This document shows positions 1 through 33,426 of a stretch of DNA of 40,081 bases, in pieces. Both the position numbers and the translations under genes were made by a program. The stretch spans positions 1-40,081 of the forward strand of contig KE560617.1 of NCBI GenBank assembly GCA_000442015.1. Reading direction: 5' to 3'. How positions within the stretch are numbered: position 1 is the first letter of the stretch; the number at the start of each line of letters is the position of its first letter. The notes under the pieces were generated by a model. The model saw only the letters and a list, made by a program, of their open reading frames with translations, had not been told where the DNA came from and made no database searches. Source of the stretch: Rozella allomycis CSF55. Taxonomy: Eukaryota.

Positions 1-3000
1 GATCGGTTATTGTTGTTTGCAGAGTTGTTTTGAAGAGTCGTTGTGTTAGAGCGTTGAATCTTTTGATGTCTTTGGAATCTAGTTTTGAGTAGACGTTGCT
101 TTTAATTGCATCTAAAAGGATTTGAGTGAAATTAACATCTGAAGATTTTGAAGTGTCTATTGATGTTTTATCATTTGACGTATTCATTGATGGTTTCACA
201 TCGTTCGTCTGTTCATCTCTTTCTCCACTTTTCTCTACCCCATCTCCATCTCCCAATCCAATAATCTTCAATCTATTCCCCGCACTCTCCAAAACAGGTT
301 TCAAACTTCTCAAACTCCAATCATAATGTTTCCTCCTTCCAACCAGCTTCATACAATAGTCAAATAATCTACACACACTCTCTGCCAACTCAACACTATT
401 TTTGTTTGTACTATTTGGAATGTCACTCTGCATGAACCCATTAGCAAACAGCAAAGTCTCTGAAATCTCCAGCTTATCAGGTACACTCATTGCAATTGGA
501 CGAAAGAGAACTTTTAAATTAAAGGGGATCTTTTGGCGGCCCTTATATGCACGGCCTACTGGATTTAGTGTGACAAAGATTGCAGAGTTGGGGTGCACTG
601 GGACTCTGTTGTTCATCAAGAGCACTATTGAAGTTATATAAGGTGGATTACCTGTAGATTTGTTGCTTTGTGAGACTTCACCAACATTCAACCCATTAAA
701 ATCATTATTCTCCCCACCATCACCTTCACTACTAGAAACAAGAACAGATTGAATTTCCTGAATCTGCTGACTAACAGCTGCCAAAACCACTGAATCCAAT
801 CGATTAAACTCATCAAAACAAACCCTATCAACTCAAAAAGTATAATTTACCAGCTGCCACATTTAACAATACCAGTGAATATTCTCTCCATTGATTCAAC
901 ATCCAGCCCTTCATCGCAATTAAACACCATAACCTGTATATGTGCAATTCAAATATTTTACTTGTCTTCCTAGTAGACAGCCTAGAGCTTTAACAGATTC
1001 AGTTTTTCCAGTAGCAGCTGGACCGAATGGATTGCCAGCGTAGCCTCTTAGTAGCGCTTGAGATAGATTAATGAAACATTTTGAGGTTAGTTCAGTGTAA
1101 ACTAGTCTTTGAAAGTTTCCCTATTTGAGAGAGATAGTTGGAGGTGTACTTGGTATTCAAATGAATGAATAAAGGAAGCATCACATATTTTGATTATACA
1201 ATCTTTAGAGTCTAAATCAACGTAGAATCTTAATTGTTTTTGCCATTCCCAATGATTTATATTTTGAACATTGTTTTTGATTAGAGATTTGATTATTTTA
1301 ATGTAATGAATAACATCCAATATTAAAGCATTGATTTTGTATTTCTCATGTTCTTTTGTTGGGGTTAAATTTGTTAATTTATTCAACATTGATTGATAAT
1401 CCACCAACAGAGATTCAAGGGTTTGGCTTGAACTATTAGAATTGACACTTTTATCTTCATTTATTAATTTATTTTTGTCTAGAACGAGAATGGATTCAAT
1501 GGAACAAGTGAATTGAATTGCATGACATAAACAAATAGTCTCTTGTGGGTAATCAGCCAATGGAATTTTATCATTTAAACAACTAATCATTAACAATTTC
1601 AAAGTATTTCTAATTTCAACATCCAACAAATTCATCCAATCTTCAATCTTTTCATTCATTTGAATTAAATTCTTCAACAGAATTACTTCCCCTTGTCTAC
1701 TAACAATTCCTTTAATGAAATTATCACTAAACAAACAATATTCAACTCCATTAAATATCTTTTTGAAATGTTGGTTCATTACTTCTCTTGTTCCATTGAA
1801 ACTAATTAATTCTAATAAACTTTCATCATTTAGAAAATAAAATTTAGGGAAATTGTTTCTTTTTGTTTCTAAAAATTCATTTAAATCTTTTTGGTAAATT
1901 TCAAATTCTGAAACTAGATTTTGTAAAATTTGAAATAAATTATTAAATGAAATGAAATTTATCAATCTGGAATCTTTCTTGATAAAATTTAATATATCTT
2001 TCATTTGATTATTCAACGAATTAAAATTTGATTTAGAACTATTAGAACTATTAGAAGACTTGAAACTATTAGAACCCTTAGAATCTAAACTTCTAGAATT
2101 TAAAGAATAGATGGGGTTTAAGTATAACCACTTTCTTTGGGCTACATTCAATAATTGAGTACAATTTGACATTAAATTTAATCTCTCTTGCCACAACTTT
2201 ATTTTATCTTTAAAATAGATTGAACAATCATTCTCTTTAATACTCTCTATCAATGATTGATTATCTCCTATCATTGTCAACACTTCCCTCCATTCTTTAA
2301 CAATAAAATAATCTCCTTCTTGCTTCATCACAAAACAACTCTTAATCCCCCAATCATCCAACTCTTCCAACGATTTCTTAATCACACTCTCTGAAACAAC
2401 CCTCTTATTCAACTCTCTAATTCTCTCTCTTTCTTTTTCAATCACTTCAATCTTCATTATCATTTCTCTAATACTCATTGGATACTTTATTTTAATCAAA
2501 TTACTCAATTCTATCCAATTCTCTCTTGTATATTCCTCCCCCTTTAACAAACTCTCATACTTTTGAAATTTATCAATCTTTCCTATTGTTTCTTTAATAA
2601 ATTCTATCCTGCTTTCTCTCCATTCTTTTTCTATTTCAATCTTTTTCTTCTTTTCAATTTCAACCTCCAATCTCTCTTTAATCTCACCACTAAATTTTAT
2701 TATCTCTTTCAATTCATTTATTCTACCCCTCAATTCTTCCATTCGAGAGAGTTCCAAAGACTGAAAAGGTTCAACTTTAATTAGGTTATTCCCATCACTA
2801 TTATCACTCTTCTCTACGTCTCTGTTCTCCCCTTCTCCCTTCAAGCTTAATATCTCAATTTGACCTTCAATTTCATAAAACTCCTTCACAAAAGCTTCAA
2901 CCTCTCCAACCTTCTCCTCAATCCCCTCTTCAAAATAATCTCTAGGCACTTCAAACACCCTCCACTTGCTCACAAACTCTTCAAACACTTTACAAAACTC

Positions 3001-5923
3001 ACTCAACTTGTCCTTGTACTTGTCCCTAATAACCATCACCTGCTCCTGCAAGAATATCTCATATCCATTCAACACAATCTCAAGCCTCTCCCACTTGCCA
3101 AACATCTCACTCAAATTCACAAAGCTTCCAACACTCTGCTTCAATATCTTATTCAACTGCTGGATCTCCTCAATCTCTATCAAACCCTCCATCCTCCGTC
3201 TCTTCAATTCAACAAACACACTCCGCGCCCTGCTAATCTCTTCAAAATTACTCGGCTTGATCGATATCTCCTTCAAACTAGCACCAACAAACTCTTCAAC
3301 AATCGCAATCTTCCCACCAATTCTATTCCTCAAACTCTTCAACACACTCTCATAATACACCTGCAAATTCCTCTCAATACAATTCTATTAAAATAATTCA
3401 ACCCCCTTACCTTAATCTCAACACACTCAACTTTAATCCCACTAAACTCAAAACTAAACTTCACACTCTCCAACTCCCTCCCCTTGTCCTTGACAAACTT
3501 CAACTGCTTCACAAAATCATCGCCAGTTTCCAACCTCAAATCAATCATCTTCATCAACTCTTCCTCCTCTGGCAAACTCAACACCCACTTCTTAAACCTC
3601 AACGGAACCATCAACACCTGGTTTATCACACTCTCAGCCCTCCGGTACACCTCACAAACCTCATAACTACACTCATCAACTATCCCGCCAAAATCATACT
3701 CATCACTCAGTCCCTTGAACTGGCTCGGTATCCCAACATACTTTTTCAACTCCCTATACATCCGCATCCGCACATCCTCAATCCCAGGCTTATACTGCAC
3801 AACCTTGTTCCGCACAACAACCTCAACCCTCACACTCTCAATACACTCCAAAACCTTCTCCATCCCGCTCTTATACTGGAACAATAGTATCTTATACAAC
3901 TGATTATCCAAAAACCTCAACCAGCCCCTCATACTCTCCCTCGAATACCCCTCACTACCAAGCTCGCCAACAACAACCCGCATCTCATTCAACACCTCCT
4001 TATACCTCCCACTCGCTCTCATCAAATCAACATCAACAAGCTGCACCATCAACCCCACTATCCTCTCATGCCGCTGCTTCAGTTTCACATTCTCACGCGT
4101 CAACTGCATCATCACCCGCTGCAACATCCCAACATACTCCTTCACCTGCCCCTCATCATGCCACTCAATCTCCCGCTTCATATACTTTCCTGGATACTTT
4201 ATCATATTCTCAAACTTCATCGCTTGCTCAACCAACATCCCTTGCTGCTCCTTCAACACCTGCACATCAAACGAATTATAAAACTCGGCAACCTGCTTCA
4301 ACACACTCACTGAACGCCCAATCCGTTGGAACTTTTCAGCTCGATCCAGAAACTTCTCAGGCACTTTATACCCGTGCGCTGCAAACTGACACACACTGCG
4401 CACAAACCGGTCAATCGATTCGTTAAACAACACACACAACTTGCCATCACTCATATTCATATTCATCAACCGACCATTCTTGTCCAACTGCAACTCTGAA
4501 TTCACATCACCCAAATCTCTCTCCATTTGCACCACCCACTGCTCAAACACCTCGTCGGCTTTCAAAATCAAATCATTGCTCAACTCTTCACACACTCTCT
4601 TTTGGCTGCCATTCAAGTTGCTCAAATGTTTCACCTGTCATTTAAATCTCCGATGTTTACCTGGTGGGAGCCATGCTTCAGAGCGACAATTTTAGTAACA
4701 ATCTCCGCATCACTTGTTTCTATTGGCTGGAGTTTTAGTGCCTCAAATTCCTTGATTTTCTTTTCCGTCTTGACAAAAATAAGCACATCCAGTTTGGTGG
4801 ATTTTATTATTCCAGTAGATAGAAAATCGACATATTGGTTATAGCTATTTTCGTCATTATTAATCTTGTTTAGAATATTTTCAGAAACAATATCACAAAT
4901 ATCTTCAAATTGCGCATTCTGATTGAGAATATAACAATCAATTACTGATTTTCCATTCAAAGTATCGAACAGCGACTTTACCAGAGCTTCTTTATTCATC
5001 GACTTCATCTTTGGTAGCTTCGTTGCAAAATCAAATAAGAATGCCATTCCTTTGGCCTATTCATCGTCAATTCACATTCTTACTCGCATCAGCATTTTAT
5101 CAATCTGTTCTAACTTTGCATAAACATCTTTATTCAATGACAATGTTACAATTCCTTGCTTAAAATTCTCAAAAATGCCTTTCACTTTTCCATATTTCTC
5201 AATCGCCTATATTCAGAAATCTCATTGAGTCTCATACCGCATACAATGACCATTCAAAGAGCAATGGAGACTGCACAAATGTCTCTTTCAAATACTCATC
5301 AATAATCTTCAACGCAACATCAACACCCATCTTCTTTCCTTGCTCACTACATGACCAACAACCAGCCTCATTACTCAACCATCTCCAATTCATTCAAAAC
5401 ATCATTCAAACTATCCTCACTTACACTCTTTGCCAAATTTGCCAAACAGTCCCTCAAATTCTTATCCTCCACTCTCTCCAACTCNTCCACTTTCTCCAAC
5501 TCTCCACTGTACTTTCCCAACTTGGCCTCCCTCACAAACCGCTCAATGGCCACTAGCTGCTGCACACACGCATCAATACTCATCCTATCACACACCACCC
5601 AACCCATTACGTCGCCGCCAACGGAATTGCAAATTTCTCTACAATCACCTCAATATCGCCAACCAGATCGTACGGCTTCAATGTCGCTACACTGATATCA
5701 TCACGCTGCTTCCTAAAACACAAGCATGTTGAAATCGCCGTTGGACTAGACGATTCACATACAATTTGGTTGGCCTGTCAGATATTGAAAATTGACTTAC
5801 CGATTCATGACAGAATAATGTGCCGTCGGCGGAATGTTTAAATGCGTTGATTTCATTCCTTGATGATGGAGTGATGTCCGAAACTTGGAAATACGCGCGG
5901 ATCACTTGCTCAATATCGATCAT
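1..5923 (-). CDS. DYNC2H1: Cytoplasmic dynein-2 (IFT dynein) heavy chain, N-terminal tail through AAA1; multi-exon, runs off the left edge
   Basis: Spliced translation gives [11 protein letters not shown]...[20 protein letters not shown]...[25 protein letters not shown]...VFNCDEGLD...CFDEFNRL...IFVTLNP...HYDWSLR. The GNP and ALGxLLGRQ context is the dynein-2 type. Introns read at 4635-4660, 3385-3410 and 1121-1149. The start at 5923 is tentative; gap at 5485. Confidence 0.9.
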
Positions 5924-6167
5924 GGAAATTTCGTCAATTTGAAAAGCGGTCCTTATTTAATGAATCTGTTTGATTTAAACTTTATTAGTTTTATTATTCT
6001 TTTATTTATTAATGAAATAGTAGTGTTTCACAAAATTAAAGAAAATAGCATCGTGGCGATGGCACTGTTTAATGACGTTACTTGATTTCATAAATGCTAA
6101 GGCATAAGATAATGTCTTTGAATGAATTCGTTTTGGTGCGAGGAGAGCCAAGCCACATAAAAGTTGC

Positions 6168-7181
6168 ATGAGAAATATTTTCACTATCACATCCCAAAGA
6201 GTTTCAGGAATACGTACTGGTAAAATCACACTTGGTGGAAAGACAATGACAACTCCCGCTATTATCAATGCAACCAGTCGAGGAGCTATCCCCCACGTCA
6301 CTCATGACTTGTTGGCTGATCTCGCAATCCCACCAGCGCGATTTCTGAACATGGGTGATTTTCTAGACACTAGTAAAATAATCCAAGAACATGGATCCGT
6401 TGAATCGTTTCTCGGAACTCAAGACATCTTGTTTGGTGGTTTAGGTCACATTAAGAGCGGTAGTAACAAGTCTGTCGAATACAAGAGCATGCTTCAGTCT
6501 CATGTAGGCTCCCGTCAAATGAAGATCACCGAGTACACTGAATTGTGCAAAGCTGTAAAAACTGACATATGTTTGCCATTGTATGATGTCCCACCAACTG
6601 AAGATATTGCAAAATCAAGAGCTTTTAAATCTATTCAGAGAACTGAAACTTATTTGAAAGAAATGATTGGCAATTTTGAAAATGTTTTCGGTGTCGTGAG
6701 TGCGTCTTCAAAGGATCTAGCGCAAAGTTTACTTGAAATGCTTGCAAAGTATCCAACATTGACAGGACTTGCTTTTAATGTTCCTATTTCTGTAATTCCA
6801 CAACTTAACATTCCAGATGAGTTTAAAGAAAAGCCATTAATGTATTTGAAGCCAATCAAAGGAACCGATTTGAAAGACCTGTTGAATTTAGGATTCGATC
6901 TCTTTATTGTGGATGTCCATAAAGAATACACAGAAAAGGGCATCGCTGTAGTTGGTAACTCAGAAGAAGAAAAAAGTATAAATCTCAACGACGAATGCCA
7001 TGTTGAAGATGCGAAACCTTTGGTGAATGATTGCAAATGCTACGCTTGCGAACATCATATAAGAGCGTATATCAACCATCTTTTGAAAACAAGAGAAATG
7101 CTTGGATTTGTTTTACTTCAAATCCATAATATTCATCACCTAAATCAATTGCTAGTCTCTTTAATAAATAAATCATCATAG
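6168..7181 (+). CDS. QTRT2: Queuine tRNA-ribosyltransferase family, probably the accessory subunit
   Basis: Intronless 337-aa ORF with TGT N-terminus (RTGKI..TPA...RGAIPHVTHD) and zinc site CKCYAC...RAYINHLLKTREML...IHN. The DSGG catalytic motif of QTRT1 is absent. Confidence 0.85.
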   Translation: MRNIFTITSQRVSGIRTGKITLGGKTMTTPAIINATSRGAIPHVTHDLLADLAIPPARFLNMGDFLDTSKIIQEHGSVESFLGTQDILFGGLGHIKSGSNKSVEYKSMLQSHVGSRQMKITEYTELCKAVKTDICLPLYDVPPTEDIAKSRAFKSIQRTETYLKEMIGNFENVFGVVSASSKDLAQSLLEMLAKYPTLTGLAFNVPISVIPQLNIPDEFKEKPLMYLKPIKGTDLKDLLNLGFDLFIVDVHKEYTEKGIAVVGNSEEEKSINLNDECHVEDAKPLVNDCKCYACEHHIRAYINHLLKTREMLGFVLLQIHNIHHLNQLLVSLINKSS

Positions 7182-14587: not shown

Positions 14588-14772
14588 GTCCATTTATTTT
14601 GGATATNTTGGCGTCCTTTCACACTAGTGCACGCGACCCTGTCCAAATTGCAATCGACCTTGCCTCATATTACTTTGATTCTAATAACTTTATTTCATCA
14701 TTTGTTGTCAAGAATGCTTATATTGAAACAGCTTTACAAAGGAAGAGAAGTCATCAATGGAGATATGAATAT
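14588..14772 (+). pseudogene. Fungalysin propeptide fragment with a frameshifting deletion
   Basis: Matches 14828-15021 with SNPs but lacks 29 nt (CTAGTGACAACCAGGTGACCCACGTTTAC). Confidence 0.75.
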
Positions 14773-14773
14773 N

Positions 14774-15561
14774 ACCCCTTTTGCCCCCAAAGTCCTGCCC
14801 GCATTTGAAGAGCCCTGTCAACAAACATTGGCGTCCTTTCACACTAGCGCACGCGACCCTGTCCAAATTGCAACCGACTTTGCCTCATATTACCTTGATT
14901 CTAATGACTTTATTTCATCATTTGTTGTCAAGAATGCTTATACTAGTGACAACCAGGTGACCCACGTTTACTTGAAACAGCTTTACAAAGGAAGAGAAGT
15001 CATCAATGGAGATATGAATATCAATGTGCATGAAAAGGGTATTTTATCTTTTGGAAACTCCTTTTCACAGAAATCTGATATTGAAGCATCGGAAAACCGC
15101 CCACTGATAACACCAATCCAGGCCTTGGAACGTTTTCTTGAATTCGTGGGCGTTGAAGAGCGAGTAGATGATGTCAAATTCCACCATGATGACAATTTGA
15201 CCAACTTAAAGAGCATTGCGAAGAATGATATTGATACCAAATTGTCCTACATCATCACAGAAAATGGTTTGTTGAAATTGGTTTGGAATCTCAAGGTTGA
15301 TATGAAAGGTTCCGACAACTGGTTTGATACTGCAGTTTGTGCCTACTCAGGCAATGTACTTTCATTGATTGATTGGGTGGCTGATGCACTGTACAATGTT
15401 TATCCAATTGGAATTGCACATCCTCTTGATGGTAGAAGAGCTCTATTAGTAGATCCGTATCCTAAAAATGCATCGCCTCTTGGATGGCATCAAACAAAAT
15501 CTTGGAACAGCACTCAAACCAAAGGAAACAATGTGTATGCTCAAGAAAACGTTGACGGAGG
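14774..15561 (+). CDS. M36 fungalysin propeptide (FTP/PepSY) and start of the mature domain; partial, between gaps
   Basis: VTHVYLKQLYKGREVINGDMNINV, LVWNL, LIDWVADALYNVYP, SPLGWH, TKGNNVYAQEN. Confidence 0.85.
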
Positions 15562-15562
15562 N

Positions 15563-15880
15563 TGATGAAGAAGAACTTGCAGCTATCCCAGATACTTTGG
15601 CCCAACTCAAGGAAAGTGCTAAACGATGGTTTGAACTTGTGAAATAGCTATAAAGAAAGATGTTAAGATGGAGGAAGAAACTATTGCATTTACAGACGCT
15701 ACTCAGCAAGATATTCAATCAGTCAGAGTCAAGTTTCCAATCAAGCATTTGGCTGACTTCCCAATGTATGAGGACGTTTTACCATCTGCTGATTTTGTGG
15801 CTCAATATAACAAGAATCGACAAGTGTGGATCATGAATTCCGAGGCTAAAAGGAGGACTTACAAAACTTGGCTCCTGTGA
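15563..15880 (+). pseudogene. Fragment of a second CR-REase-like gene with an inverted duplication
   Basis: IAFTDATQ...VWIMNSEAKRRT aligns by eye with ISFSKATY...VWVLDNEKACRI of the 11291-12130 protein. Confidence 0.5.
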
Positions 15881-16341: not shown

Positions 16342-17782
16342 ATCCAATTCCACCATGATGGCAACTATATGTACGCTAACGAAGCATTTACGTTGACCAA
16401 CGTAAAGAGCATTGCGAAGAATGATATTGATGCCAAATTGTCCTACATCATCACAGAAAATGGTTTGTTGAAATTGGTTTGGAATCTCAAGGTTGATATG
16501 AAAGGTTCTGACAACTGGTTTGATACTGCAGTTTGTGCCTACTCAGGCAATGTACTTTCATTGATTGATTGGGTGGCTGATGCACTGTACAATGTTTATC
16601 CAATTGGAACTGCACACCCTCTTGATGGTAGAAGAGCTCTATTAGTAGATCCGTATCCTAAAAATGCATCGCCTCTTGGATGGCATCAAACAAAATCTTG
16701 GAACAGCACTCAAACCAAAGGAAACAATGTGTATGCTCAAGAAAACGTTGACGGAGGATATGATTGGGCTAACAACTACAGACCAGATGGTGGTCGTAGT
16801 TTAAAGTTTGATTTTCCCATTGATTTTAAGAAGAGTCCGAAAACATATCTTGACGCAGCTATTACCAATCTCTTCTTTTGGAATAATGTTATGCACGATC
16901 TTTTCTATCAGTATGGCTTCAATGAAGTTTCTGGAAACTTTCAGGAAGATAATTTTGGAAGAGGCGGTTTAGGAATGGATGGTGTTATTGCCAATGCGCA
17001 GGACGGATCTGGAACCAATAATGCCAATTTTGCAACTCCACCAGATGGACAAAGAGGAAGAATGAGAATGTATGTGTGGACCCAAACCAATCCGAACAGA
17101 GATGGAGATTTAGAGAATGGAATCATTATTCATGAATATGGTCACGGAATATCTACAAGATTAACAGGAGGACCTGCCAATTCAGGTTGTTTAGGATTTG
17201 GAGAAGCTGGAGGAATGGGTGAAGGATGGTCTGATGTGTTTGCAGTTCTTCTTCGTCAAAGACCATCTTATAACAGAACTATGAGATTTTCAATGGGTGA
17301 CTACTCAAACGGTGGTATCGGTATACGAAGATATGACTATACAACAAACATGAAAATAAGTATTTAAATCATTCAATATTCAATTAGATCCCGAAACTTA
17401 TGGATATATTAAAAAGTCTGGCTATTGGGGTGTCCATGCTAAAGGAGAAGTTTGGGCGGGAATACTTTTGGAAAGCTATTGGAATTTTGTTGACAAGTAT
17501 GGCTTTAATGAAAACTGGTACAATAAATTTGGTGGAAACTCAATGTTCCTTTCTCTTGTTGTTGATGGGTAAATTGAATCTACGCATTTGAATAGATTGA
17601 AATTACAACCTTGTCGTCCAACCTTTGTCGATGCACGAAATGCGATTCTTCAAGCAGATAAAGTCAAATTTAATGGAAAAAATTCATGCTTGTTGTGGAA
17701 GGGATTTGCTAAACGTGGACTTGGATTGAAGGCTTCTGCTGGAGGAAATGAAGATTTCTCAATGCCAACTGAATGTTCTTAA
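16342..17782 (+). CDS. Extracellular metalloprotease, M36 fungalysin; 5' part lost in the gap at 16341
   Basis: YGFNEVSGNFQ, NAQDGSGTNNANFATPPDG, zinc motif HEYGHGISTRLTGGP, GGMGEGWSD, HAKGEVWA, LQPCRPTFVDARNAI, WKGFAKRGLG. Introns 17360-17387 and 17569-17595. Confidence 0.95.
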
Positions 17783-20828: not shown

Positions 20829-21284
20829 TTAAACTTGGTATTTAGTGCCAACTAATTCTTTAAACTCGCTGTAGCCACCAACAAACTTGGCCTTCTTTAA
20901 ATCACAGCCCTCAAGAATAAAAGGACTTGTTTTATGGTTCTTTCCATGCTTATAACTCTGATGAGAGCATCATTAATCAATTACTTGTTGCAAGTGCTTT
21001 AGTCTCTCCGGCCACTCGCTCCTTGGATAACCGTTCACTTCAACATGTACGCTTGCATCCCTTTCATTTAATTTCGACCCTAGTTTTGTAGCTTCCTGAA
21101 AGTATCCACATGAAAGGAACCCCTCAATATGGAAACAAGTTTTGGTGGATTCATTATTGCCAAATATTGATGGAAGAAGGGATTTCAAATAACCTGACAT
21201 GGGTCCATAAAAATATAGCAGGCATATTGCAAAGAGTAAAAATATACGCAGCAATAGATTTCTTTTTCTCATTGGGGCTTGCAT
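20829..21284 (-). CDS. Small membrane-anchored thioredoxin/glutaredoxin-like fold protein
   Basis: N-terminal TM segment, then FHIEGFLSCGYF...EW...; after intron 20958-20984, HKTSPFI...FVGGYSEF. Confidence 0.65.
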
Positions 21285-21423
21285 AATTTTTTTCTCATAC
21301 CATCCTAAAAGTGAAATATTAACCCCGCTTTGAACAATTTAGCACAATTAAACTAGATAAAGGAATAAAAACAAGAGAAATTTTCGAATTATTTTATAAA
21401 AATATAAACTTTTGTACTTTCAA

Positions 21424-21497
21424 GTTTTCATGGTGTAGTTGGTTATCACATCTGCTTATCACGCAGAAGGCCTCCAGTTCAAGTCTGGATGAAAACA
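21424..21497 (+). tRNA. tRNA with a Val-type body and anticodon ATC (formally Asp)
   Basis: Acceptor GTTTTCA/TGAAAAC, D arm GTG..CAC, anticodon arm TCTGC-TTATCAC-GCAGA, T arm TCCAG-TTCAAGT-CTGGA, discriminator A, followed by TTTT. Confidence 0.9.
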
Positions 21498-21630
21498 TTT
21501 TGCTATTTTTCTAATTCTTTTATTTTTATTTGCCAAAGCTGTGCAGTTTAATATGTAGAAGATTGTGTTACTGAGATTTTTACTTTATTAGACATCTTCA
21601 GGCCTTTTCCAATTTCCCAAATTTCGTAAA

Positions 21631-22830
21631 ATGCTGCAAAGTACATCGACAAATAACGGTATTTTTAATCTGGTTGGTATATTTAGATATTGAAATATCC
21701 ACACCTCTCAATGATACGGTGTCTGAGCTTTGCTTTTCGCCTGTAGCTGACTACCTTGCAGCATCATCGTGGGACGGGCAGGTAAAACAATACAATAACT
21801 ATTAATAGACACGAGTTTGGGAAGTACAAGCAAACGGACAAACGGTTGCACGTACCAGCATTCAACACGACCAACAAAATCCTGCATTATGTTGTACTTT
21901 TTCAAAGGATGGAACAAAAGTTGTCAGTGGAGGAACTGATAAGGCTGTAAGAATTTTAGATCTTAATTCCAACCAAACTATGGTTTTGCAAGGAGTAAAC
22001 AGGAAGCCCTATAATTCATTTAGCATGAAGGTCCAGTGAAATGTGTAAAATGGGCAGAAAGCATGTCCCCTATCGTAATTTCGGGCTCTTGGGATAAAAC
22101 TGTTAAAGTATGATATAGTTTATGATGTAATTAGTATTGGGACTTGAGAAGTCCAAACCCAGCTGCCTCCGTTACTCTTCCAGAAAGATGCTACACAATG
22201 GATGTACAATATCCCCATTTAGTGGTGGGAACAGCAGAAAGAAATATTTTGATATTTAACTTGTCGAATCAGTCGTTAGTCAAGGTACGTTTAATGAATG
22301 CATTTGATTCAGAATACCGTTTCACCATTGAAACATCAAACAAGAACTATTTCTTGCTTCCCTGATGGAAAAGGATATGCTGTAGGCTCTGTAGAAGGCA
22401 GAGTCGGTATCGAATATTTCGACGAAAAGAACTCAAAGTAATTACAAAACCTTACTTTAAACAGCAAATTTTCTTTCAGATGTCACCGTGAAGGAAACAA
22501 CATCTTTGCCGTTAACTCAATATCTTTTCATCCATTTTATGGAACATTTTCTACAGCTGGATCAGATGGAGCGTATGCTTACTGGGACAAAGACTCGAAA
22601 TCTCGTCTAAAAACACCAACAAGCGTCGGAAATCCAATTACTTCTACTGCGTTTAATAGAAATGGGACAATTTTTGCATATGCCACTGGATACGATTGGC
22701 ACAAAGTAATTTAATCTATATTGATGAATTTAAGGGACATGAGCATCACACACAAGGAACAAAAAATACAATCAGGTTACATGCTGTTACGGACTCTGAA
22801 ATTAAGCCTAAAGGATTCAAAAAACGTTAG
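21631..22830 (+). CDS. RAE1: mRNA export factor Rae1/Gle2 (WD40); multi-exon
   Basis: DTVSELCFSP..ASSWDGQ, SGSWDKTVKYWDLR, LPERCYTMD, SPLKHQTR, GSVEGRV, FSFRCHR, STAGSDG, WDKDSK, YATGYDWHKG. Introns include 21659-21686 and 21782-21808. Confidence 0.93.
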
Positions 22831-27844: not shown

Positions 27845-30412
27845 ATGAGTGTATCTAAAGCGACACTTTTTATTCGTGGGATCCCCAAAGAGGCCACCAA
27901 GGAAGATTTAGCAGAGATATTAAGCGAAACGAAGCCTTCTAATTTTTTTCTTGTCCAGAAAAAAGGACAAGAGCAGCACAGTGGGATCGCGTATGTGCAC
28001 TAGTAAGAGTCGGTGTTAAGATAGAGTAGTATAAAAGAGGAGAATGCAGTCAAGGCTAAGAGTGTATTGGAAGATAAAAAGCTGCATGGAAGGAACATCC
28101 AAGTTGATTTTGCATTGAAGAAGAAGAGAGAAGAGGATATGAAACCAGGCAAGAGAACGTTGAAAAAGATGAATCCTAGTGAAAGAGAAAAGGTCAAGGA
28201 GGAAAAAAAGGAAAAGAGTGAGGAAGAGATTTTGGCGGAAAAGAAGGAGAAGAAGGAAAAGGTTAAGCAGGAGATGATTAAAAAGGCGCAGGAAGCGAAG
28301 CAAGCGGAAGAAGCCTCACCTGCATCGACGTTGGTATTAGTGAAGAATGTAGCAAAGGATGTAGATCAAAAACAGTTTTACAAACGCGTGAAGAAGCTTG
28401 GGGATGTTAGTATTGTTTCATTTGGAGACGGACAAGGTAAGCATTGCATGCTGGTCTTAAAATAGCAAGAATATGTTTTTCTAGTATAGGAGAGGCAAGA
28501 GAAGGATTTAAGAAGCTTGACCAGCATGTGTTTAAAGGGGAGACGATGAGTTGTGAGTATGTCTATGAAAACAGAAGATTGATTATAAGAAATTTAGATT
28601 TCGCAGTTGATGAGGAGTATTTGAAAGAAGAGTTTGGAAAGATTGGGTTGGTTACTGATGTGCAAATTCCCGTTAAAGAAGATGGACAAAAGCGAGGGTT
28701 TGCGTTTGTTGAAATGGGGACAGAAAAGTTGGCTAAAAAGATTATTAAAGAGTTTAATGGAAAAGAAATAAAGAAAAGGCCAGTTGCCATTGATTTTGCA
28801 TTTAATAAAGAAGAATTTGAAAAGAAAAAAGTTGAGATTGAAGAAAAGGAAGCGTTGATTGCAAAGAAGAGAGAAGAGGAAGAAAGATTAGTCTTTAATG
28901 AAGAAGATGATGAAGAATTTGATATGGAAATGAACCCAATTGAAGGTAACGAAGAAGTAGAAGAAGTAGAAGAGGTGGAAGAGAGTGAAAAGGAGAGTGA
29001 CAGTGATGATGATAGTGACAATGAGAATGATGATGAAGAAGAGAGTGAAGGTGAAATCAACGATGATAAGGCTGAACAACAAAATGAAACGGAAAGAAAG
29101 GATATTCAAAAGAAGAAAGAGAAGTCTTGGGATACAGAAGATGGGTGCACGGTTTTTATTAGAAATATTTTACTATCTGCTAGCTATGAATCAATTAAAG
29201 AAGCTTTGAAGCCATTTGGAGAAATAGTCTATGTTAAAATGGTTAAAGACAAAGAAACCGGTGAATTCAAGGGAACAGCGTTTGCAAGGTTTAAAACTAA
29301 AGAACAAGCGAACGATGCAATAGAAAAATCAAAATTAGGTTTAATTAATTCAAATTCTGCTCTTTCCGATAGAACCCTTGTTAAATCTTCATTGTTAGTA
29401 CAAGATGACCAGGGTGTCTACATTGAAGGAAAACCAGTTTCAATTTTCCCAGCGATTAAAGATGTTGATAATTTAATAAAGAAAAGAGACGAAGAAGGTT
29501 CCTCTGATGTCGATAAAAGGAATTATTTTCTGTTAAAGGAAGGAGGTAATTTCTGAAATTTCTTAAATAATATTAGTGATTTTTCCAGATTCTCCAGCTG
29601 CCAAAGATTTAACGCCATCTGAATTAAAAAGAAGAATGGAATCATTCGATGAAAGAAAAAGACAATTAAAGAATCCAAATTTTATTGTTTCGAAAACACG
29701 TCTTTCTGTTAGAAATTTGCCTTTAGATGTTGATGAAACTCAATTAAAACTATTGGCCAGAAATTCGGTCATGGAGAGAAAGAAATTAACAGAAGAAGAA
29801 AAGAAATTAGAAGGCTGGGATAAAAAACTAAAAATAGTTCAAGTGAAAATTGTTAAAAGCAAAGATCGAGTTGATTCAAATGGTAAATTCAGATCTAAAG
29901 GTTATGGATTCATTCAATTCTCTCAATTTTGTCACGCCATGATGGCTTTAAGGCACATGAACAATAATCCAAATCTTTTAAAGAAAAGACTAATCGTTGA
30001 ATTCGCTATTGAAAATCTAAACATTGTTAAAAAGAGAAATGAAAAATTAAAAGCCAAAGAACTCAAAGACAAAAATGATGAAAAGAAGGATAACGAAAGC
30101 AAGGAAGAGAAGGGTTCAAAGAAGGAAAAGAAAGTTAAGAAGCCTAAAGAAAATAAAGATTCTGAAATGTCAACAGAAAAAGTTAAATCCAAAACAGATC
30201 CTTCTAAGCCTAAAAAGAAAAAGAAACAACAAGAAAAAGTTGATCAGCCTCAACCAGTTGTAACAAATCAACTAAAAAGAAAAGTTGACGAATCTTTAAT
30301 AGACAAAAAGAAAAAGAAAAAGAAGAATATTGAAAAGGTTGATAATTTTGATGCAATCTTGTCTTCTTACAAGGATAAACTTTCAAATGAATTAAACACA
30401 TCGGCATTGTAA
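27845..30412 (+). CDS. NOP4: Nucleolar multi-RRM protein Nop4/RBM28; multi-exon
   Basis: Multiple RRMs (RLIIRNL/RGFAFV, TVFIRN/KGTAFARF, RLSVRNLP/SKGYGFIQF), an acidic tract, DKRNYFLLKEG|VIFPDSPAA and LIVEFAIEN. Confidence 0.92.
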
Positions 30413-31223: not shown

Positions 31224-33135
31224 CTACCGACTGCCATCAACCCTAGGATCTTCCAGCAAAAGTGCGGCAACGTTTTTTTTGGCAAAGCGAATAGCATAAT
31301 TATCATTGTCACTGGGATTTACCCTAGAGTCTTTCAGCAAAATTGTAACAATTTCTACATAACCGTAAAAGGCAGCGCTTCGAATAGCTTCATTGTCGTG
31401 AGCACCTGGATCTACTCTAGAATCTTTAAGCAAAATTTTAACAACTTCTACATGACCATTGGAGGCGGCGTGTCGAATACACGCATTGTCGTGAGCACCT
31501 GGATCTACTCTAGAATCTTTAAGCAATATTTTAACAACTTCTACATGACCATTGGAGGCGGCGTGTCGAATACACGCATTGTCGTGAGCACCTGGATCTA
31601 CTCTAGAATCTTTAAGCAATATTTTAACAACTTCTACATGACCATTGGAGGCGGCGTGTCGAATACACGCATTGTCGTGAGCACCTGGATCTACTCTAGA
31701 ATCTTTAAGCAATATTTTAACAACTTCTACATGACCATTGGAGGCGGCGTGTCGAATACACGCATTGTCGTGAGCACCTGGATCTACTCTAGAATCTTTA
31801 AGCAATATTTTAACAACTTCTACATGACCATTGGAGGCGGCGTGTCGAATACACGCATTGTCGTGAGCACCTGGATCTACTCTAGAATCTTTAAGCAATA
31901 TTTTAACAACTTCTACATGACCATTGGAGGCGGCGTGTCGAATACACGCATTGTCGTGAGCACCTGGATCTACTCTAGAATCTTTAAGCAATATTTTAAC
32001 AACTTCTACATGACCATTGGAGGCGGCGTGTCGAATACACGCATTGTCGTGAGCACCTGGATCTACTCTAGAATCTTTAAGCAATATTTTAACAACTTCT
32101 ACATGACCATTGGAGGCGGCGTGTCGAATACACGCATTGTCGTGAGCACCTGGATCTACTCTAGAATCTTTAAGCAATATTTTAACAACTTCGATATGAC
32201 CACGTCCTGCTGCATCTCTAATACACTAATTGTCGCAAGCACTTGGATCTACTCTAGAATCTTGTAGCAAAATTTTAACGACTTCTTCATAACCATAAAA
32301 GGCAGCGTGTCGAATAGCTTCATTGTCGTGAACACCTGGATCTACTCTAGAATCCGAAAGCAAAATTTTAACAACTTCTTCATAACCATAAAAGGCAGCG
32401 TGTCGAATAGCTTCATTGTCGTGNGATATGACCACGTCCTGCTGCATCTCTAATACACTAATTGTCGCAAGCACTTGGATCTACTCTAGAATCTTGTAGC
32501 AAAATTTTAACGACTTCTTCATAACCATAAAAGGCAGCGTGTCGAATAGCTTCATTGTCGTGAACACCTGGATCTACTCTAGAATCCGAAAGCAGAATTT
32601 TAACAACTTCGATATGACCATTATTGGCTACACCTCGAATATCACGGGCACTTGGATCTACTCTAGAATCTTGTAACAAAACATTGACAACGTCTGCACG
32701 CCCATTTATGCAGGCCCTCCAAAGAGGTTCATTGTTATTTAGACTTGGGTCCACTATAGAATCTCTCAACATACGTTTAACACATTCACGGAAACAATTC
32801 TGACATGCAAATAAAAATGCATTGTTAACAGTTTCCGGTGACAAACATTTTTCTTGGAAGACGCTTAGAAAATCAACCAGCCACTTATAATTTTTTAAGT
32901 TATTCAGGATTTTCGTGCACTCTTTTACAGTCAATAATTCACCGCACCTATTCTCAATTATCTTCTGGATAATGTATGGGCAACTCCACGAACAACATGT
33001 TTCTGGAGCTTGATGAAGGATAGAATAAGAGCAATATGAACGAAGCCAACGGGAAGTTTTTGAGATTTGTTTTATGTCATTTAGGCTTACATGCGACAAA
33101 ATTATGTGCCAAACCTCAAATGGGAACTGGATCAT
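31224..33135 (-). CDS. F-box plus ankyrin-repeat protein interrupted by an in-frame TAG
   Basis: N-terminal FPFEVWHIILSHVSLNDIKQISKTSRWLR is F-box-like, followed by 31-aa repeats DPxxxDNxxIRxAAxxGHxEVVKILLxDSRV. TAG at 32458-32460, repeated at 32226-32228 across gap n32424. Confidence 0.75.
31391..32192. repeat. 93-bp tandem repeat, 8 near-identical full units
   Basis: GGATCTACTC recurs at 31501, 31594 and onward; 8 identical 31-aa units in the minus-strand translation. Confidence 0.97.
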
Positions 33136-33426
33136 TCTTTGTGTGGCTAGCCTGAGGCTGAAATACATCATACACATGAACCTTAAATCTTAATAGTTAC
33201 TCTTCAACATAAATATGGAAGCTAAAAGTTCTCTAATAAGAGTGACTGAACATCATTGTCAAGAAATCCATTATTAATTTGATTTCTGGTACAAACAGCT
33301 AAGAAATATGGGTTATCCATTATGTTCAGGTTAAGGTATCATATTTTATATTAGTTTCCCATATAATTAAAACAAATCATTCAATCTATTTATTTAAATT
33401 TATGAATTTATGTAAGCTATACCACA

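Follow-up and report, generated by a model that had tools for sequence, protein, structure and literature searches.

Locus and tRNA gene

The window analyzed here, a 40,081-nt stretch of Rozella allomycis DNA, carries intron-containing fungal genes (a dynein heavy chain, two M36 fungalysin open reading frames, RRM proteins, and ankyrin repeats) and a sole tRNA gene, which ARAGORN places at positions 21424 to 21497 of the forward strand and types as Asp with the anticodon atc. For membership in the tRNA family we asked for a score at or above the gathering score of Rfam RF00005 (29 bits) over the full length of the model. The RF00005 match has the same coordinates, scores 63 bits (E = 1.7e-11), and spans model positions 1 to 71 of 71, in agreement with ARAGORN. 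Together with a cloverleaf parse, these calls describe a nuclear, intronless gene of 74 nt that combines a valine-type body with the anticodon ATC.

Parsed position by position, the gene has 7 of 7 acceptor-stem pairs, a D stem of three pairs plus a U13.U22 mismatch, 5 of 5 T-stem pairs, a variable loop of 5 nt, and A at position 73 (21497). All 5 pairs of the anticodon arm TCTGC-TTATCAC-GCAGA (21451 to 21467) are Watson-Crick, and its 7-nt loop, TTATCAC (21456 to 21462), holds ATC as positions 34 to 36 (21458 to 21460), where the sequence, ARAGORN, and the parse all put it; this 17-nt arm has a single occurrence in the window, where chance predicts 0.02. A preliminary description of this DNA had claimed such a cloverleaf with this anticodon, and ARAGORN, the Rfam score, and the parse bear it out, with U13.U22 in the D stem. 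The MFE fold of the tRNA is likewise near cloverleaf; its z value of -1.4 (21 of 200 shuffled sequences fold equally well) is uninformative for an AU-rich, unmodified tRNA.

The promoter boxes and T-run terminator claimed in the same description are also recognizable. An A-box-like internal Pol III promoter element covers tRNA positions 8 to 19 (21431 to 21442), and a B-box-like element with G53, T54, T55, C56, A58, and C61 covers positions 52 to 62 (21476 to 21486); both were read from the sequence against what we take to be the consensus of these boxes. On the same strand, the runs TTTT (21498 to 21501) and TTTTT (21506 to 21510), with 4 bases between them, form a terminator-like stretch at which Pol III transcription would presumably end. 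The one RNA run among those listed contains next to no words of the sequence, a result that bears in neither direction on expression.

Valine body and its multicopy background

We aligned Logan contigs from four public DNA runs (X1, X2, X4, and X6) to positions 21000 to 22000 at a threshold of 85% likeness, chosen so that paralogues would appear. Summed depth in X1 is 183 to 280 in the flanks versus 4458 to 6730 inside the tRNA. Three X1 contigs tile the gene: those at 21420 to 21457 (depth 750) and 21463 to 21501 (depth 844) do not differ from the window, and the one at 21444 to 21491 (depth 1900) differs once, by T>A at 21459. That substitution, the sole difference of the X1 tiling across the gene, turns the anticodon into AAC (valine). 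Because the tiling contigs are 750 to 1900 deep and the flanks 183 to 280, the body is that of the common Val(AAC) gene except at one base. By its body sequence, as found in the X1 contigs, the gene thus belongs to the tRNA-Val(AAC) family of the organism; by its anticodon, ATC and not AAC in the window, it does not. The multicopy contigs therefore agree with the earlier claim of a valine body that differs only by A35>T and retains A73.

The same tRNA halves are joined in the contigs to at least five distinct upstream flanks and at least three distinct downstream flanks, which marks them as separate paralogous loci. In addition, a TAC-anticodon arm with a differing stem sits between identical 5' (to 21449) and 3' (from 21467) parts, as known from two overlapping contig loose ends, after 21449 and before 21467, in X1 and X2. 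The body therefore serves two valine isoacceptors, and the AAC and TAC paralogues of the organism itself point to Val as its isotype. Relative to flank depth, the depth at 21459 of contigs bearing A at this position is 7.6 to 11.6 in X1, 14.8 to 27.1 in X2, and 20.8 to 39.5 in X4. These rough figures indicate that intact Val(AAC) copies number on the order of ten or more, roughly 8 to 20 genome-equivalents.

Some paralogous copies share short upstream sequence with the locus. The last 3 to 5 bases before the gene (21419 to 21423) also precede paralogous copies, as seen in loose ends before 21419, 21420, and 21421, and a short motif ending in CAA may be conserved ahead of these genes. One paralogous contig (X2 record 15, X6 record 26) matches 21395 to 21446 with 7 differences in 52 bases; the match takes in about 29 bases of the upstream flank and may represent an older duplication of locus and flank. 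A SINE or retroelement origin of the repeated sequence was ruled out: the flanks of the locus have the depth of a single copy, and those of the paralogues, excepting those 3 to 5 shared bases and the one copy that shares about 29 upstream bases, are unrelated.

Relatives were also sought in metagenome contigs, from collections that are poor in fungal DNA and are thus weak evidence on relatives. A 41-nt pattern with position 35 left free had no match there, and the exact 19-nt ATC arm occurs at 13 loci, at none of which (0/13) ARAGORN finds a tRNA; these 13 are chance matches.

The base at position 35

The window has T at 21459 (position 35), and all six contigs that cover this base (two from X1, three from X2, and one from X4; X6 is without cover) read A. 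The window assembly is the one source of the T. The earlier observation of a valine body with an aspartate anticodon is thus exact for the window sequence, and its decisive base is read in 0/6 contigs, none of them anchored in the flanks. A check of the reads at 21459, run here on contigs, gives only A, from contigs that are not linked to the locus: none is joined to the flanks of the gene at 21424 to 21497, and those with listed continuations lead away into other flanks or are confined to the tRNA. Contigs with an anchor in the flanks, which are unique left of 21418 and right of 21503, end at 21446 to 21453 on the left and resume at 21473 to 21518 on the right. Logan contigs drop minority variants, and the T path of one locus, next to an A path of about ten times its depth, is such a case. 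Given contigs that are unlinked to the locus and a method that drops rare variants, the base T is neither confirmed nor refuted, and the 6/6 result means that A-bearing paralogues exist, not that T is absent.

The A-bearing contigs nevertheless raise the possibility that the T stems from an error of assembly or base calling, or from a variant that is very rare or somatic, and that the locus truly has A35 and is an ordinary tRNA-Val(AAC). No contig bears T, and assemblies are at their weakest in repeats such as the one that holds the gene, with about ten or more copies. The window is moreover unlike every run: the share of its words found in any run examined is at most 0.81, and none of the four runs agrees with it at six sites of the left flank. 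Against an artefact, the A-bearing contigs are unjoined to the flanks of the locus, a T path some ten-fold shallower than the A path is what contigs would lose, and mis-threading among paralogues cannot make a base that is absent from all of them. A random error that hits the middle anticodon base is also unlikely a priori, an argument weakened by the fact that the gene was selected as an oddity. We consider an artefact unlikely, while giving it real weight.

Sequence around the gene varies among the runs, with flank variants at 21386 to 21404 and at 21548 to 21601. Two haplotypes appear in the right flank: X1 is identical to the window (0 differences), and X4 has the same haplotype with three other single-base differences, whereas X2 and X6 carry four SNPs and an 11-base deletion at 21557. 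Elsewhere in the window, an ORF of the TGT family is 99% identical (334/337 residues, 3 differing) to a public protein that NCBI assigns to R. allomycis CSF55. R. allomycis is reported to be triploid, with heterozygous SNPs common to single cells (PMC6784888, as excerpted), and the left-flank, right-flank, and protein differences fit this heterozygosity. The window itself seems to be a haplotype or assembly that is under-represented in the contigs. Taken together, triploidy, the two flank haplotypes, and the differences of window from runs and of protein from protein make a heterozygous allele in a sheltered, redundant gene plausible.

Variant sites are denser near the tRNA. Within 110 nt of the gene (21314 to 21423 and 21498 to 21607) they number 10 in 220 nt versus 3 in 422 nt of the farther flank, which we defined as the stretch without an ORF of at least 80 aa (Fisher p = 0.002, from a small sample). 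A raised mutation rate around transcribed tRNA genes is cited in the excerpted text of PMC13010820, and clustering of variants around this gene would fit such a rate.

Predicted aminoacylation and decoding

Statements from the literature in this and the following sections refer to excerpts of the cited papers. The eukaryotic identity set for Val comprises A73 and A35, with A35 described as the strong element, and C36 is listed for Val in bacteria and archaea only; the eukaryotic set for Asp comprises G73, G10.U25, G34, U35, and C36 (Giege & Eriani 2023, PMC9976931). The rules quoted in the preliminary description mostly accord with these sets; the exception is C36, which is not a eukaryotic Val element in the excerpted review. 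Our parse gives the gene A73, A34, U35, C36, C38, and G10-C25. By these identity rules, which derive from yeast and other model systems and not from Rozella, it keeps one of the two eukaryotic ValRS determinants (A73), with A35 replaced by U at 21459, and has two of the five of the eukaryotic cytosolic AspRS set (U35 and C36), without G73, G34, and G10.U25. With A35 lost and three of five Asp determinants missing, charging by ValRS or AspRS is expected to be very poor; as judged from its sequence, the RNA would probably serve neither enzyme well.

Deamination of the wobble base could still occur. ADAT2/3 reads the shape of the tRNA, not the sequence of its loop, and tRNA-Val(AAC) is a natural substrate (PMC9643335). 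The gene at 21424 to 21497 presents A34 on a native Val(AAC) body; its U35 is found in none of the natural substrates listed in the excerpt of that paper. As the enzyme is independent of loop sequence and acts on Val(AAC), A34 could become inosine, and charged molecules with I34 would read GAU, GAC, and GAA. These codons make up 403 of the 3825 in the 11 long ORFs of the window (GAT 149, GAC 53, and GAA 201). When tRNAs with A-starting anticodons for two-codon boxes, including Asp-AUC, were overexpressed in Escherichia coli, they tended to reduce growth (bioRxiv 10.64898/2026.05.15.725136).

These properties bear on the idea of an active mistranslator, in which the RNA is expressed, is charged with a little valine by way of A73 and its valine-type body, and inserts valine at GAU and GAC and, with I34, also at GAA (Glu), the burden being tolerated because the gene is one among many Val copies. 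Intact structure and Pol III-like elements, the kept A73 as the other eukaryotic Val determinant, a plausible I34 on a natural ADAT2/3 substrate (PMC9643335), and the commonness of the target codons are all compatible with this, and the clustering of variants near the gene is a weak hint of transcription. However, A35 is called the strong valine element, so residual valylation should be very low (PMC9976931); wide mischarging is considered unlikely for isotype-switch alleles whose backbone depends on the anticodon (PMC13010820); and Asp-AUC is among the overexpressed tRNAs that tended to impair growth in E. coli, so selection should remove an active copy. An active mistranslator is, in our estimation, improbable.

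A captured aspartate decoder would follow instead if AspRS charged the RNA via U35, C36, and C38, all of which the parse finds; the gene would then be an extra tRNA-Asp that reads GAU by Watson-Crick pairing, with an alloacceptor shift under way. The identity elements that count most in the mitochondrial tRNA-Asp of humans are U35 and C36, and that tRNA tolerates A73 (PMC9976931); decoding of GAU has been proven for a tRNA-Asp-AUC from bacteria (PMC9262613); alloacceptor shifts persist in eukaryotes (PMC13010820, PMC3923123), and GAT outnumbers GAC in the window ORFs. Yet G73, G34, and G10.U25 of the eukaryotic cytosolic set are all absent, the body shows no changes toward Asp, inosine at position 34 would cause misreading of GAA, and the fungus-poor metagenome contigs yielded neither another copy of the arm nor a relative that carries it. 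We regard capture by AspRS as very unlikely.

Both of these readings need a T that is real and an RNA that is expressed and charged. A live valine-bodied AUC/IUC tRNA of that kind, either as a tolerated mistranslator or as a GAU decoder captured by AspRS, has in our view a low probability; if true, it would represent a eukaryotic alloacceptor shift caught at the outset, shielded by polyploidy and by redundant gene copies.

A probable young variant of a redundant gene

The explanation that we favor, and hold to be probable, is that one redundant locus of the multicopy nuclear tRNA-Val(AAC) family has undergone a single change from A to T at position 35 of the anticodon (A35>T), which left a young variant that is poorly charged and all but neutral. 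The change probably happened recently, and perhaps only one haplotype of this heterozygous organism, which is reported to be triploid, carries it. Transcription of the gene still seems feasible, as its promoter-like boxes and T-run terminator look intact, and its RNA would fold like a normal tRNA whose A34 could still be deaminated to inosine. Loss of the ValRS determinant A35, together with the absence of three of the five AspRS determinants, would leave it very poorly charged by both enzymes. It would then persist as a near-neutral loss-of-function copy amid roughly 8 to 20 genome-equivalents of intact Val(AAC).

Two features of the data suggest that the T, if real as we suppose, is both young and of little consequence. 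The gene is without other differences from the multicopy Val(AAC) sequence and no decay is seen, which fits a young change, and with ten or more intact Val(AAC) copies present, loss of one copy, or of one allele of three, should be near costless; the RNA is thus presumably harmless. An intact body and promoter-like elements are equally expected of a functional, selected gene. The preliminary description had offered three alternatives, of which its young anticodon-shift mutant is the best supported; the T itself is absent from the contigs.

Its proposal of a non-translational tRNA-like RNA found no such support. The gene might in principle serve as a source of tRNA fragments, as a chromatin or Pol III boundary, or as a decoy for synthetases or modification enzymes, and only the intactness of the gene and its probable poor charging speak for this. 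One base alone sets the gene apart from its paralogues, and a function of the gene body or of a boundary would be common to those paralogues and would not need the T. We consider a role outside translation extremely unlikely.

Comparison with known systems

The kind of oddity seen here is already recognized, and the Rozella gene is a further example even if the T is real. Asp-ATC is named by tRNAscan-SE 2.0 among eukaryotic "unexpected anticodons," and conflicts between anticodon and body are flagged by that program as "unusual and probably not functional" without automatically being called pseudogenes (PMC8450103). Like this class, the gene at 21424 to 21497 is high scoring, has the anticodon ATC, and shows a conflict between anticodon and body. 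The "unexpected anticodon" is an annotation category without a mechanism, and the 63 bits reported here come from Rfam, not from tRNAscan-SE.

Closer parallels exist among alloacceptor shifts, of which 31 were described in eukaryotic and bacterial clades, with position 35 the commonest site and none among Saccharomycetes (Rogers & Griffiths-Jones 2014, PMC3923123). The high-score class of that study takes at least 50 bits and a body of ancestral identity; here the score is 63 bits, on the Rfam model, and the body is that of the Val(AAC) paralogues. As in those shifts, a nuclear gene with the body of one amino-acid family has acquired a foreign anticodon by one substitution, at position 35. In nematodes, polymorphic isotype-switch alleles are mostly rare, 56 to 61% of them arise from anticodon mutation, and Caenorhabditis elegans V.trna22, present at high frequency, combines the anticodon CAT with a valine backbone (PMC13010820). 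The Rozella gene likewise joins a valine backbone to a foreign anticodon, and its T may be polymorphic in the manner of the rare nematode alleles. The alloacceptor shifts and nematode alleles are defined by syntenic orthologues or population data, whereas the change in Rozella is defined by the organism's own paralogues.

The anticodon itself has a bacterial precedent. Streptomyces tRNA-Asp-AUC decodes GAU efficiently with A34 unmodified; its anticodon stem-loop is unusual, its Cove score is 29, and it is kept in 32 streptomycete genomes (PMC9262613). It shares its anticodon with the Rozella gene and shows that AUC can work in translation; it differs in being bacterial and, in the excerpted text, is not described as derived from tRNA-Val. 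Because eukaryotic ADAT2/3 is not sequence selective, A34 in the Rozella gene would be more likely to be edited than A34 in Streptomyces. The gene also departs from usual eukaryotic tRNA sets in that it has an A-starting anticodon for a split codon box, a combination that is normally avoided.

Within the organism, the gene matches tRNA-Val(AAC), which is read as IAC after deamination of A34, in its whole body, A73, anticodon stem, and loop positions 32 to 34 and 36 to 38, and departs from it by U35 in place of A35, so that the valine anticodon and a ValRS determinant are gone. With eukaryotic tRNA-Asp(GUC) it has U35, C36, and C38 in common, and it differs from that tRNA in A34 (and hence lacks a queuosine site), A73, G10-C25, and the valine-type body.

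No Val-to-Asp(AUC) case was found in the excerpts of the alloacceptor-shift and isotype-switch literature examined. Asp-ATC isodecoders also had to be dealt with in a 2026 survey of yeast, which refers to them in its methods only. The tRNAscan-SE program was applied to R. allomycis in an eLife study of codon optimization (PMC5315462), in whose excerpted text and 12 of 13 supplementary files no per-anticodon tRNA table for this species was found. Among the matches listed in our literature search there was no paper on this gene or on the nuclear tRNA set of R. allomycis, which is not proof of absence.

The gene is mainly a caution and a small case study. Annotation by anticodon only would add a spurious Asp(AUC) tRNA to the decoding table of the genome, which could mislead screens for codon reassignment and calculations of tRNA adaptation. 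If the T is a true heterozygous allele, polyploidy and tRNA redundancy would shelter anticodon mutations in an early-diverging fungus, and such sheltered mutations are the raw material of alloacceptor shifts. A bearing on how far eukaryotes tolerate A-starting anticodons in split boxes would follow only if the RNA is charged and used.

Other features of the window

The TGT-family ORF mentioned above lies at 6168 to 7181 on the forward strand (Pfam PF01702), and its named relatives outside Rozella are annotated as queuine tRNA-ribosyltransferase or accessory subunit, at just 24 to 31% identity. Queuosine normally modifies G34 of tRNA-Asp(GUC); the occurrence of this ORF near a gene with an Asp anticodon is most likely a coincidence. 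Adjacent M36 fungalysin ORFs at 14714 to 15565 and 16369 to 17367, both on the forward strand, belong to a single gene as exons or form a tandem pair, and the first also has an FTP propeptide motif. The ORF at 3339 to 4526 on the reverse strand has no Pfam match.

An ankyrin-repeat ORF occupies 31224 to 32225 on the reverse strand (Pfam Ank_2, E = 1.8e-83), and a tandem repeat at 31315 to 32423 comprises 11.9 near-identical 93-bp ankyrin units of 31 residues each, with 93% matches. The next ORF upstream, at 32458 to 33189 on the reverse strand, encodes more ankyrin repeats and has a weak F-box match (E = 5.6e-4) that is under the Pfam cut-off. GC skew is strong, at -0.68 and -0.41 within positions 2001 to 6000 and +0.41 in positions 28001 to 30000.
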